A stretch of 30,401 nucleotides of DNA from Dehalococcoidia bacterium (GTDB taxonomy: Bacteria; Chloroflexota; Dehalococcoidia; Lucifugimonadales; UBA3495). The position numbers and the translations under genes are program-made. Shown in pieces: positions 27,298-30,401 of the stretch. The stretch is taken from positions 1 through 30,401 of the forward strand of contig JASLXV010000099.1 of NCBI GenBank assembly GCA_030740155.1, read 5' to 3'. The first letter of the stretch is position 1. Every line of letters begins with the position of its first letter. The notes under the pieces are model-generated. The model did no database searches, was not told where the DNA came from, and saw nothing but the letters and a program-made list of their open reading frames with translations.

Positions 27298-28401
27298 TCA
27301 CTCCACAGGCAGCGACAGGTGCTCTTCTGGTGGCTCGCCAGTGAGGACCGAGCCTTCCCGAACGGGGTAATATACCCGTGCACGGGTCTTTCCGACCGGC
27401 ACCAACGCTCCCGCCTCAACCATCTCCGCGAGGTCCCTTGAAGCCGTGACCGGTGAAACCCCGGTGATTTCGATGTACTCTGGTCGGGTGATTTTACCCG
27501 TTTGGAGGGCGAACCAGAGGCCATCAACTTGCCGAGGTACCCAGCCTTTCTCCGTTCCGACCCTGTACACTTCCTGCATCCGGCGATGCCAGTCGGTCAG
27601 GTATGCCACAAACTCGGAAACGTGCCGGTCCAAGGCCAGAGCGAAGAATTCGAGCCAAGGGGTTGCATCGTATCCCCGCGAGAAACTTGTCCCGAGCGTC
27701 CGCTCAATGGCGGTGAAATAGGAGTCACGATCCTGAAACAAGTAGTTTTCAAGGGCTAGAAGCTTTCTGAAGCTGAATGGCGACCTCTGCAGAATCAGGG
27801 TCGTAAGCCCCCGCGCGGTCCGGCCGTTTCCGTCCCAGAACGGATGGATCGCAACCGAGTGAATGTGGGCGATGCCTGCCCTGGCGACCGGATGCACGTC
27901 ATCCGTATCCTGCCGTAGCCAGAGGGCGAAAGACCGCATCAATCCCGGCACGCCCCCCTGGTCCGGAGGCGTGTAATTGCCCACCGTGTTTTGCCCTTTG
28001 CGGTACACGCCGGGCGTCACCGTATCGGGCGCGCCGGTCATGAAGAACCGGTTCAGTTGCCGCATAACCAACTCGTCGATGGGGATATCCGCCTGATCGC
28101 TCAGAAAATCGATGAAATCGTAGGCTTGGAGGGCATTGATGTTGGCCTGCTCGTCCGGGGTCGGATTCCTCACTCCCCCATCTCCGAGAAGGTTCCGGAC
28201 CCCCGTTTCGTCCAGGGTGGCTCCTTCAATCCGGGTGGTTCCGGCGGCGCGTTTGACTTTTATCTCCCGGCGCAGCCATGCTTCGTGCTTCGGCATCAGG
28301 AGCATGTTATTGACCAGCCAAAGCTGGCGCTCAATGTCTTCGATGGCTGAATCGATGGCCGGTGTGATGGTGTAATGAGGGGCAAAGATATTATCATTCA
28401 T
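27298..28401 (-). CDS. Fic family protein (class II) with C-terminal HTH
   Basis: Canonical HPFWDGNGRTAR; N-terminal inhibitory motif TTRIEG; C-terminal ITRPEY..TGVSPVTASRDL winged HTH. Confidence 0.93.
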   Translation of the reverse strand: MNDNIFAPHYTITPAIDSAIEDIERQLWLVNNMLLMPKHEAWLRREIKVKRAAGTTRIEGATLDETGVRNLLGDGGVRNPTPDEQANINALQAYDFIDFLSDQADIPIDELVMRQLNRFFMTGAPDTVTPGVYRKGQNTVGNYTPPDQGGVPGLMRSFALWLRQDTDDVHPVARAGIAHIHSVAIHPFWDGNGRTARGLTTLILQRSPFSFRKLLALENYLFQDRDSYFTAIERTLGTSFSRGYDATPWLEFFALALDRHVSEFVAYLTDWHRRMQEVYRVGTEKGWVPRQVDGLWFALQTGKITRPEYIEITGVSPVTASRDLAEMVEAGALVPVGKTRARVYYPVREGSVLTGEPPEEHLSLPVE

Positions 28402-28442
28402 GTCATATTACTGCTTATTAACATGTAGTATTGATATGAATT

Positions 28443-28471
28443 ATAATATCACGCCCAGTCGTTCGCGTCAA
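28443..28471 (-). promoter_or_regulatory. Putative sigma70 promoter for fic
   Basis: Minus strand TTGACG-N17-TATTAT with extended TG; overlapping TATAAT 3 nt downstream. Confidence 0.65.
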
Positions 28472-28576
28472 CGGTAATCGAGGGTTCGCCAAGCCCCGCG
28501 ATGGCAACTGCGGGAGACTCGCCAGGCTATCCGACCATGTGCCACGCTTCCGGGCGGCGGCTGTTTTCCCTACCTG

Positions 28577-28605
28577 TTGACAATTGTTGACCCTTGGCAT
28601 AGACT
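28577..28605 (+). promoter_or_regulatory. Sigma70 promoter of the leader peptide / reductase transcript
   Basis: TTGACA(28577-28582)-N17-TAGACT(28600-28605); leader ATG lies 8 nt downstream. Confidence 0.75.
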
Positions 28606-28613
28606 TTCTGTTA

Positions 28614-28697
28614 ATGAGTTCCGTAGTTATGGCCATGACCTGTTGCATGTGTTCTTGTCCCTGTACATTGGGGGGGCAGGAGGGTCATGTAATCTAG
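28614..28697 (+). CDS. Cys/Met-rich attenuator leader peptide (27 aa)
   Basis: MSSVVMAMTCCMCSCPCTLGGQEGHVI*; 5 Cys codons within 8 codons, 4 Met; sits between promoter and terminator upstream of a sulfite/nitrite reductase. Confidence 0.82.
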   Translation: MSSVVMAMTCCMCSCPCTLGGQEGHVI

Positions 28698-28725
28698 CAG
28701 CCTCGTAGACCGCTCTTCGCCCGCC
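28670..28725 (+). promoter_or_regulatory. Antiterminator (2:3) pairing
   Basis: GG-GGGC-AGGAG-GGTC (within 28670-28686) pairs with GACC-g-CTCTT-c-GCCC-g-CC (28708-28725), sequestering the 5' arm of the terminator. Confidence 0.75.
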
Positions 28726-28755
28726 AGTTTTTGACGATTGGCGGGTTTTTATTTT
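28720..28755 (+). terminator. Intrinsic terminator (attenuator 3:4)
   Basis: CCCGCCAGT-loop-ATTGGCGGG followed by TTTTTATTTT, about 22 nt upstream of the reductase start. Confidence 0.88.
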
Positions 28756-28777
28756 GTCTAATTCTCAGGAGGATCAG

Positions 28778-30401
28778 TTGAGCACTCGGACCAAGGCCAT
28801 TCAGGTACGCACCCAGGAGGAACTCTACCGGGAAAGCAAGCAGCTGGCCCAGACCTCCTCGGGGATCATTCCATTCATCGACTACGAGATAGAGCGCCTC
28901 GAAGAGGAGTCGGCCGCGTATGTCGCCGGAGAACTGGAGGACAGCCAGTTCATTCCCTTCCGGCTCCGGCAGGGCGTGTACGGGCAACGGCAACCCAACG
29001 TGCAGATGGTGCGGGTAAAGATCCCTGGTGGCATCCTCACGCCTGAGGCGCTGGAAACCCTGGGGACCATAGCTGAGGAGTACGCCCCTCTGGGCAAAGG
29101 CCACGTCACCACCCGGGAGAACTTCCAGTTCCATCACGTGCCGCTGGCCAGGTGCCCTGAGGTGCTGCGGCTGCTGGGCGAAGTGGGTTTGAGCACGAGG
29201 GAAGCCTGCGGCAACTCGGTCCGCAACGTGATCGGATCCCCGGTTGCTGGGGTATGCGCCGACGAGGTCTTCGACCCGACACCCTATCTCGCGGCTTACG
29301 TCCGTTTCGGGGTGCGCCACCCGATTACTCAGAACTTCCCCCGGAAGTTCAAGACAGCCTTTACCGGCTGCTCCAGCCACGACAGCGTCGCCGCCGCTAT
29401 CCAGGACCTGACCTACGTCTCCCAGCTGCGAGTAGAGGGAGGCGTCGAGAAGCGGGGCTTCAAGGTCTACGTCGGGGGTGCGACCTCAATCATGCCCCGG
29501 CTGGCCAAAGCCCTCTACGAGTTCGTGCCCGAAGAGGACTACCTGCGGGTGGCCCTGGCCATCTGGACGGTGTTCAACGACGCGAACATGCTGCGGAAGA
29601 ACCGCATGATGGCCCGGCTGAAGGTCCTCATCGACCGGATCGGTCTCGACGCCTTCCGCGAGTCGGTGGACGCTGAGCTGGAGAAGATCGGCCCCATCGA
29701 CCCTACACTCCTGATGGCCGCCGAGGAGATACAGAGAGAGACGCCGCCCGGGCTGGGGCCAGTTTCCGGTCTGGTGGTCGGGGCGAACGGGCAGATCAGC
29801 AATGGCGGCGGGGAGCACGGCCGTTGGGTCGAGTCCAACGTTTCAGCCCAACGGCAGGAAGGCTACTACCTGATTCACGTAAAGCTGCCCCGGGGCGACG
29901 TCAACTACGCCCAGTTCCGGGGCTTGGCCGACATCGTCCGCCGCTACACGGGGGGGCGGGCCCGCACCAACCTGGAACAGAACCTGGTTCTTCGTTGGGT
30001 ACCGGGCTCCCACCTGAAACAGGTGTGGGAGGCCCTGAAAGCAATCGATCTCGCCGGACCCGGCGCCCGGTCTATCACGAACGTCGTGTCCTGCCCCGGC
30101 ACCGATAGCTGCAAATTGGGCATAACCTCCTCCATGGGGCTGGCCAAGGCGATCGGAGAGGAGATGGCGACCTGGAACGGCCTGGGAAGCGACGAAGAAA
30201 TTCAGAAGCTCCGCATCAAGATCAGCGGCTGCCCCAACGGGTGCGGGCACCACCACATCGCCAACATCGGCTTCCACGGCGCCGCCGTCAAGGGCCCGGA
30301 CGGGGGGCAGATACCGGCCTACGAGCTCTTTTTGGGCGGCAACTACGGCGGCAGCCGCATCGAAGATTCCCGTGTCGGCACCCGCGTCCCCAGGGTGAAA
30401 A
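28778..30401 (+). CDS. Siroheme/[4Fe-4S] sulfite (or nitrite) reductase, 3'-truncated by window end
   Basis: Absent from the ORF track (no stop in window). AGGAGG SD plus TTG; translates to RLRQGVYGQRQ, MVRVKIPGG, HVTTRENFQ, EACGNSVRNV, PRKFK, SCPGTDSCKLG and ISGCPNGCGHH. Confidence 0.93.
   Translation, partial: MSTRTKAIQVRTQEELYRESKQLAQTSSGIIPFIDYEIERLEEESAAYVAGELEDSQFIPFRLRQGVYGQRQPNVQMVRVKIPGGILTPEALETLGTIAEEYAPLGKGHVTTRENFQFHHVPLARCPEVLRLLGEVGLSTREACGNSVRNVIGSPVAGVCADEVFDPTPYLAAYVRFGVRHPITQNFPRKFKTAFTGCSSHDSVAAAIQDLTYVSQLRVEGGVEKRGFKVYVGGATSIMPRLAKALYEFVPEEDYLRVALAIWTVFNDANMLRKNRMMARLKVLIDRIGLDAFRESVDAELEKIGPIDPTLLMAAEEIQRETPPGLGPVSGLVVGANGQISNGGGEHGRWVESNVSAQRQEGYYLIHVKLPRGDVNYAQFRGLADIVRRYTGGRARTNLEQNLVLRWVPGSHLKQVWEALKAIDLAGPGARSITNVVSCPGTDSCKLGITSSMGLAKAIGEEMATWNGLGSDEEIQKLRIKISGCPNGCGHHHIANIGFHGAAVKGPDGGQIPAYELFLGGNYGGSRIEDSRVGTRVPRVK

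Follow-up and report, generated by a model that had tools for sequence, protein, structure and literature searches.

The leader region upstream of the reductase gene

The sequence analysed in the present study (hereafter the window) is a stretch of 30,401 nucleotides (nt) from a Dehalococcoidia bacterium, comprising the whole of contig JASLXV010000099.1 in the 108-contig assembly GCA_030740155.1. Near the end of the window, a gene of the nitrite/sulfite reductase family is preceded by a short reading frame rich in Cys codons and by an intrinsic terminator hairpin. The initial annotation of this region read it as a transcription attenuator of the trp/his type in front of a sulfite reductase. 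The comparative results obtained herein support this reading, and the leader is probably a ribosome-mediated attenuator that reads the supply of Cys-tRNA(Cys). The parts of the region are as follows.

28577-28582, forward strand: -35 hexamer TTGACA, by direct reading and consensus scan.
28600-28605, forward strand: -10 hexamer TAGACT, after a 17-nt spacer.
About 28612-28614, forward strand: putative transcription start, placed from the position of the -10 box.
28614-28697, forward strand: leader reading frame of 27 codons plus TAG, MSSVVMAMTCCMCSCPCTLGGQEGHVI, putatively leaderless.
28641-28664, forward strand: putative sensor tract with five Cys codons (TGT, TGC, TGT, TGT, TGT).
28652-28662, forward strand: segment 1, the 5' arm of hairpin P1, from the minimum free energy (MFE) fold; the helix is kept in the alignment of related leaders (A1, below).
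28667-28689, forward strand: segment 2, G-rich, partner of segment 1 or segment 3, from folds and alignment.
28704-28728, forward strand: segment 3, the 3' side of the antiterminator, from constrained co-transcriptional folds.
28719-28746, forward strand: intrinsic terminator hairpin (segments 3:4) with 11 pairs, 6 of them G-C, and a loop of 6.
28747-28756, forward strand: U tract TTTTATTTTG, directly after the terminator stem.
28767-28772, forward strand: Shine-Dalgarno sequence AGGAGG of the reductase gene, by direct reading.
28778-30401, forward strand: nitrite/sulfite reductase family gene with start codon TTG, cut by the contig end (Pfam NIR_SIR and NIR_SIR_ferr).

The promoter, with 10 of 12 matches in the consensus scan, was present as initially annotated, and the same was true of the ATG at 28614, which lies 8 nt past the -10 box without a Shine-Dalgarno sequence, of the 27-codon frame ending with TAG at 28695-28697, and of its five Cys codons (at 28641, 28644, 28650, 28656 and 28662; four TGT and one TGC). 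The predicted terminator and its U tract were also found, and segment 1 overlaps the last Cys and the Pro codons of the leader, while segment 3 overlaps the 5' arm of the terminator at 28719-28729. In the surrounding 1-kb stretch, one terminator-like site was observed versus 1.0 expected, and three promoter-like sites versus 0.6 expected. The motifs alone are not above chance, and their significance comes from conservation in relatives. An Rfam scan of 28300-28900 (E up to 10) revealed no family that reached its gathering score; the best match, at 20.4 bits against a gathering score of 50, covered only the terminator.

Conservation and folding of the leader

The loci of orthologous reductases (sir) were picked by protein similarity only, blind to the leader sequence. 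A sir orthologue was matched in 35 of 41 related genomes, and the 30 best loci, including the window, were compared. All 30 carry TTGACA and TAnnnT separated by a 17-nt spacer (18 in one locus), followed within 6-11 nt of the -10 box by an ATG or GTG without a Shine-Dalgarno sequence. The leader frames span 12-28 codons, most often 16, and contain three to six Cys codons in 23 cases, two in three, one in three and none in one. The usual ending is C-x-C-x-C-P-P-T-stop, e.g. MMANIINLCSCTCPPT and MYLIGTCVCSCTCPPT, and the N-terminal half of the frame is unconserved and variable in length.

Cysteine accounts for 98 of the 522 codons in these 30 leaders (18.8%; 5 of 27 in the window leader), compared with 0.93% in the long open frames of the genome. 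The remark in the initial annotation that neighbouring genes mostly use TGC holds, as TGT makes up only 19.6% of the Cys codons in the same long open frames. In the leaders, however, TGT prevails at the two Cys positions closest to the hairpin (49 of 55 cases); those lying upstream of these and outside the helix comprise 31 TGC and 12 TGT (31/43 TGC). Thus, the TGT bias tracks RNA pairing and is at least partly structural. The upstream Cys positions have been retained through synonymous change, which argues for selection on codon meaning, and the intervening residues show free variation (T, S, R, A, I, L, V, M, F or N). The conserved Thr codon of the leaders is ACA, which represents 5% of the Thr codons in the window genome.

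Twenty-three leaders were aligned (alignment A1). In this alignment, the stop codon TAG is located in the loop of hairpin P1, the 5' arm of which consists of the last Cys codon and the Pro codons, and the 3' arm of which reads GGGGGCRGG. For P1 and the terminator together, 83.8% of the positions are paired, compared with 43-51% when the partners are slid, and ten pairs have changed on both sides, a number reached by 2 of 500 shuffles. The clearest covariation was observed at terminator pair 121:146, with A-U in 11 sequences and G-C in 10. CCUGCGCCC, with which the 5' arm of the terminator begins, is complementary to the G-rich arm as well, and the resulting antiterminator is 91.3% paired in the 23 sequences versus 36-60% when slid. 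The initial annotation had made its reading depend on whether the upstream regions of orthologues keep the Cys codons and the alternative stems, and both are evidently conserved (29 of the 30 frames contain Cys).

The predicted free energy of the whole leader RNA is -53.9 kcal/mol, compared with a shuffle mean of -42.6 (z = -3.07), and none of 200 shuffles equalled it. The core of the MFE fold is P1, in which 28652-28662 pair with 28672-28682, with the terminator alongside. The initially proposed pairing of segments 1 and 2 was thus recovered in its core, whereas the outer register differs from the suggested CATGACC/GGTCATG helix. Since the terminator persisted in every fold of the full-length leader, wherever the ribosome mask was placed, transcripts were then cut before the 3' arm of the terminator, with 30 nt around the A site masked. 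The predicted pairing of segments 2 and 3 appeared under these settings, as an antiterminator of 28667-28689 with 28704-28728, and in the window its formation requires both a masked segment 1 and a cut transcript. With the ribosome on any of Cys codons 1-4, six or seven of the nine scored bases of the terminator arm were paired to segment 2, compared with none when the ribosome was absent or was placed on the last Cys codon or the stop codon. Similar results were obtained in the family, where, in all leaders but L002 and L010 (21 of 23), a stall on one or more of the Cys codons left at least four arm bases sequestered, and none of the 23 formed the antiterminator with the ribosome at the stop codon. 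As free RNA, 21 of 23 were devoid of antiterminator pairing, and L014 and L022 showed two and five bases, respectively. The ribosome-masked folding recommended in the initial annotation therefore agreed with its prediction for cut transcripts, but not for full-length ones.

The window leader itself appears to be a derived, atypical member of this family, homologous to the frames of approximately 16 codons in the relatives. Within 28665-28697 it reads ACA-TTG-GGGGGGG where relatives have ACA-TAG-GGGGG, with two extra G residues; the TTG at 28668 replaces the stop codon TAG of the family, so that the frame extends by nine codons (LGGQEGHVI) to 28695, and the Pro-Pro of relatives is PC. Comparable stop-loss variants were observed at loci L010, L019, L020 and L036, and, according to the folds, the switch would still work in the window copy. 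One contig from an RNA library spans 28631-28882, covering the leader, the terminator and the start of the reductase gene with a single difference, located in the terminator loop. Because this contig carries the same leader, the stop-loss variant is not an assembly error, and because it bridges both parts, leader and gene can share one molecule; its support is weak, as DNA may be present in such libraries and contigs show no transcript ends. Contigs nearly identical to parts of the reductase gene occurred in four runs of as many studies (marine, hydrothermal vent, seawater and "metagenome" by label). None in these four RNA runs covered 28200-28607, a lack of cover that is uninformative on the start site.

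Gene associations, distribution and a second leader class

The window reductase scored below every cut-off of the NCBIfam equivalogs, including NirA, CysI and sir. The label of sulfite reductase thus rests on context, and the protein is most likely an assimilatory sulfite reductase. In the window genome (a 93.7%-complete assembly), ATP sulfurylase is present on contig C32, and the PAPS/APS reductase domain (PF01507) was not found. In all three relatives with complete loci, the reductase gene is directly followed by a uroporphyrinogen-III synthase-like gene (L144:2079-2915, L145:2284-3150 and L146:2090-2914). These genes score below NCBIfam cut-offs; such a neighbour fits the need for siroheme, and the pairing suggests a co-regulated siroheme supply. 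A second, partial reductase copy lies on the reverse strand of contig C90 (2619-3239) and is 76% identical to residues 335-541 of the window protein. As the estimated contamination of the assembly is 7.65%, this copy may reflect two related strains in the bin, or a paralogue.

A covariance model (R1) built from the leader matched exactly two places in the window genome, namely this leader (77.9 bits) and a second copy (43.2 bits).

Contig C25, 122449-122594, reverse strand: second copy of the putative attenuator (locus L033), by R1 match.

The second copy has the frame MKHTGLTLNYDCTCTCPPS, its own TTGACA/TAGACT promoter and a terminator. It precedes a ThiF/MoeB/MoeZ-like adenylyltransferase gene and a cysKM cysteine synthase gene (369 bits, cut-off 344), which are followed by the nusA-infB genes. 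The same leader was thus found before other cysteine genes, which are among the kinds of gene that the initial annotation had proposed to compare. The MoeB-like and cysteine synthase pair presumably recalls the protein-thiocarboxylate route to cysteine of Mycobacterium tuberculosis.

Among genomes of the same family, R1 matched all 24, with two matches in 16, and in other families of the order it matched 4 of 16 genomes. The MoeB-like and cysteine synthase pair follows 19 of the 20 non-sir matches that were fetched (22 such matches in all). When 185,579 species, each represented by one genome, were scanned for exact occurrences of the core motif, 90 stretches were revealed. Among the 80 listed, which were selected by the motif and are therefore used for gene association and taxonomy only, sir lies behind 38, the MoeB-like pair lies behind 41, and a contig end truncates the remaining one; 79 are titled as metagenome-assembled genomes of Dehalococcoidia, Chloroflexota or SAR202, and one as "uncultured bacterium". 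These titles agree with the Chloroflexota-like host suggested in the initial annotation. R1 gave no match at E <= 0.001 in 150 other genomes of the class, with only 21 candidates scored per genome. By inspection, a promoter-proximal Cys-rich frame of the putatively leaderless type, e.g. MIIKICSDYCSCICRL, occurs at 6 of 29 sir loci in the class sample, all in one family; two more loci of this sample, L148 and L170, have Cys-rich frames outside the automatic filter, and L170 belongs to another family of the order of the window. Taken together, the sir and MoeB-like/cysteine synthase operons appear to form a small cysteine regulon in Dehalococcoidia of the SAR202 type.

Three of the sir leaders (L002, L007 and L023) read MRYGDDLFHLCTAPPT, MRFEDDLFHLCMRPPT and MRFEDDLFHLCTRLLM and share the invariant peptide DDLFHLC, which has been retained despite synonymous changes at six of seven codons, e.g. 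CTG versus TTA. Such leaders often hold a single Cys codon, directly after DDLFHL. A degenerate pattern for this peptide was matched in 54 of 401 genomes of the order, with 73 matches, as against two in the reversed control. They cluster in a few families, in one of which 22 of 24 genomes were matched. In addition to the three sir leaders and loci L042 and L052, 30 loci (L176-L205) were fetched from the pattern matches. In these 30, the frames begin beside a promoter and are followed by terminators, and the genes behind them include sir (14), PAPS/APS reductase (4), MoeB-like (2) and 1-Cys peroxiredoxins (2). A TauE/SafE-family permease, a weakly matching cysteine-dioxygenase-like cupin with an enoyl-CoA hydratase (three of five similar loci scanned) and, elsewhere, proteins without an assigned family were also observed. 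From this gene content, the DDLFHLC leaders likewise appear to constitute a sulfur regulon. The motif was not found in the literature searched.

The cysteine-regulon leaders of SAR202 are of two kinds, the putatively codon-counting kind seen in the window and a kind that keeps the DDLFHL peptide. The nascent DDLFHL chain could act within the ribosome tunnel, either as an arrest or sensitiser peptide with which a single Cys codon suffices or, by analogy with TnaC, which senses tryptophan, as a sensor of a metabolite reporting sulfur status. We consider such a role of the chain a rather doubtful possibility; if true, the family would bridge classical attenuators and arrest-peptide sensors.

Proposed mechanism, alternative explanations and known systems

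The classical leader-peptide attenuators of amino-acid operons are exemplified by trp of Escherichia coli and his of Salmonella. The window family resembles these systems in having a short leader frame enriched in codons for the pathway's final product, in the alternative pairings of segments 1:2, 2:3 and 3:4 with an intrinsic terminator, and in a stop codon placed where a terminating ribosome would mask segment 2. Unlike trp and his, the proposed signal is cysteine, the leader apparently has neither a 5' untranslated region nor a Shine-Dalgarno sequence, the stop codon of the family sits in the P1 loop, the hosts are SAR202-type Dehalococcoidia, and the targets are sulfite reductase and the MoeB-like/cysteine synthase operon.

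The analysis shows the sequence features and that they are conserved, the terminator's covariation, the capacity of the antiterminator to pair, and the association with particular genes; from these we infer the start site, the translation of the leader, the stalling and the response to cysteine. Herein, we propose that transcription would start at approximately 28612-28614, so that the mRNA begins at or beside the AUG of the leader and initiation would be leaderless. When Cys-tRNA is plentiful, the ribosome would reach the stop codon and cover the G-rich segment 2, and when no ribosome is present, segment 1 would keep segment 2 in hairpin P1. With segment 2 occupied in either way, segment 3 would be free, the terminator at 28719-28746 would form, and transcription would end short of the reductase gene. 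Under a shortage of Cys-tRNA, the ribosome would stall on one of the first four Cys codons (28641-28656), covering segment 1 and leaving segment 2 free to pair with segment 3, including most of the 5' arm of the terminator, and the polymerase would read into the reductase gene. The same device with its own promoter would control the MoeB-like and cysteine synthase operon elsewhere in the genome. In other words, the attenuator most likely switches cysteine-making genes on at a shortage of charged cysteine tRNA.

Several results weigh against this proposal. Among the 30 sir leaders, three carry only one Cys codon and one lacks Cys altogether; ribosomes could be slowed independently of cysteine by the conserved Pro-Pro ahead of the stop codon; and the TGT bias near the hairpin may be structural and not a rare-codon device. 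Terminator-like sites in the 1-kb stretch are no commoner than in shuffles. Covariation of the stems, which the initial annotation had proposed to look for, was obtained for the terminator, but the antiterminator covaries little in the same alignment, with three two-sided pair changes that were matched by 19 of 500 shuffles; this low covariation reflects the conservation of both sides. In addition, the antiterminator of the window is interrupted by bulges, and divergent leaders gave mixed results in a crude fold test, where 24 of 53 passed the strict criterion (3/5, 1/6, 11/25 and 9/17 by group), an ambiguous outcome that we weigh in neither direction. Finally, the equilibrium folds keep the terminator wherever the ribosome is placed, and therefore the switch, if existing, must be kinetic.

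Other explanations might account for parts of these results. The helices might answer to a metabolite, a protein or a small RNA independently of translation, with the reading frame incidental. The loop of P1 and the stop region are indeed conserved at the nucleotide level beyond coding need, as illustrated by the Thr codon ACA, and the Cys and Pro codons also serve as P1's C/U-rich arm. However, an incidental frame would not be expected to hold its start codon at a set distance from the promoter in all 30 loci, to remain open across the variable N-terminal part, or to show a 20-fold enrichment of Cys with synonymous TGC/TGT variation outside the helix. As the number of Cys codons also varies between leaders, from 1 to 6, no Rfam family was matched, and both controlled operons are cysteine-synthesis operons, we regard such an RNA switch as improbable. 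A role for translation without a main role for Cys-tRNA seems similarly improbable. In this case, stalling at Pro-Pro-Thr-stop (dependent on EF-P or release factors) or the general translation capacity would drive attenuation, and cysteine would be secondary. The Pro-Pro-Thr-stop end is as conserved in the family as the Cys codons are, and the second leader class has a conserved peptide, often with one Cys codon. Nevertheless, the conservation of the Pro codons is explained by their forming the C-rich arm of P1, and the window, L010, L019 and L020 are without this ending yet retain Cys codons. In the folds, moreover, segment 2 is masked by a ribosome stalled at the stop codon, which favours termination (antiterminator in 0 of 23 leaders), and the gene content of the regulon points to cysteine.

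Two further explanations were considered. The conservation of the CxCxC motif at the peptide level would be consistent with a functional micropeptide, for example a ligand of metal or sulfur, followed by an ordinary or leaky terminator that plays no part in sensing. This appears very unlikely, since the N-terminal half is unconserved and variable in length, stop-loss variants are tolerated, and the peptide would have to come from two separate loci, each directly before a cysteine-pathway operon, with the conserved complementarity of the antiterminator left unexplained. Translational attenuation of the mycobacterial type, with the Shine-Dalgarno sequence of the gene downstream occluded by the Cys tract, is suggested by the likeness of the putatively leaderless polycysteine frame to mycobacterial leaders, but is scarcely credible here. 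The fold of 28614-28810 shows no pairing between the Cys tract and the Shine-Dalgarno sequence of the reductase gene, which is situated 21 nt past the terminator stem, and a canonical terminator with a U tract, conserved with covariation, stands in between. Attenuation of transcription in response to Cys-tRNA thus remains the preferred explanation.

The proposed mechanism is textbook; what would be new is cysteine as the sensed amino acid, the lineage and the pairing with leaderless initiation. Cysteine is among the few amino acids for which no classical leader-peptide transcription attenuator is known to have been characterised; the tested case, that of mycobacteria, operates at translation, and the cysS leader of Rhodobacterales is a prediction. 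SAR202 bacteria are abundant in the deep ocean and have been linked to sulfur cycling, and in this uncultured lineage a complete putative attenuator is conserved before both operons making sulfide and cysteine. The element might therefore offer a sequence-only handle on the sensing of sulfur or cysteine limitation, which the leader-to-gene read ratio in metatranscriptomes would report. On regulatory grounds, it also adds to the case for this NirA-family enzyme being an assimilatory sulfite reductase, and it would couple putative leaderless initiation to terminator control outside Actinobacteria.

Several cysteine leaders have been described in other bacteria. In mycobacteria, leaderless polycysteine frames attenuate translation through masking of the Shine-Dalgarno sequence and without a terminator, and the authors stated in the available part of their report that they were aware of no prior attenuation by an upstream open reading frame (uORF) for cysteine (Canestrari et al. 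2020, bioRxiv 10.1101/834739). As far as the accessible text describes them, these leaders share with the window family a short frame, leaderless in mycobacteria and putatively so here, a Cys tract near its 3' end, a position before cysteine-pathway genes and a proposed readout of charged tRNA(Cys). They differ in acting on translation without an intrinsic terminator, whereas the window family has a conserved terminator and antiterminator and a Shine-Dalgarno sequence that is not masked by the Cys tract, and their Cys codons are consecutive, whereas those of the window family mostly alternate (CxCxC). The available portion of a 2026 paper on attenuation in M. tuberculosis also treats the cysteine case as translational.

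Another parallel is uORFC-8-2, a predicted attenuator that precedes cysS in Rhodobacterales and combines two tandem Cys codons (at approximately positions 14-15) with a terminator (Brewer et al. 2021, PMC8632094). Judging from the accessible text, it is likewise predicted to be ribosome-mediated, with Cys codons in the first stem and a terminator with a U run. It is a prediction only, found in alphaproteobacteria and only before the gene for cysteinyl-tRNA synthetase, and is not described there as leaderless; in contrast, 79 of the 80 listed loci of the window family precede sir or the MoeB-like and cysteine synthase pair, and their Cys codons mostly alternate. In Actinobacteria, Cys leader peptides have been predicted without terminators, and their mode of action was left open in the part of the report available (Seliverstov et al. 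2005, PMC1262725). According to the same part, these candidates resemble the window family in that the frames are short, lie upstream of cys operons and have Cys codons in runs close to the stop; the terminator of the window family sets it apart. In the literature searched, which covered few subscription journals, no cysteine leader with a terminator before sulfite reductase is described, in line with the statement in the initial annotation, and no leader-peptide attenuator is described in Chloroflexota or SAR202.

Two observations concern the DNA at and upstream of the promoter. The promoter spacer is kept in two forms, TTGACAATTGTTGA and TTGACAATTCCCGA (window 28575-28599; L004, L006-L009, L011, L014, L020 and L022). 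The form TTGACAATTGTTGA is a near repeat of the -35 box and contains the palindrome ACAATTGT, and the conserved spacer might act as the operator of a further regulator or as an extended promoter element. Further upstream, a Fic-domain protein with a weak match to the Fic adenylyltransferase model is encoded divergently (27298-28401, reverse strand), and the AT-rich gap between its gene and the leader holds two promoter-like sites, facing each way (28418-28471).

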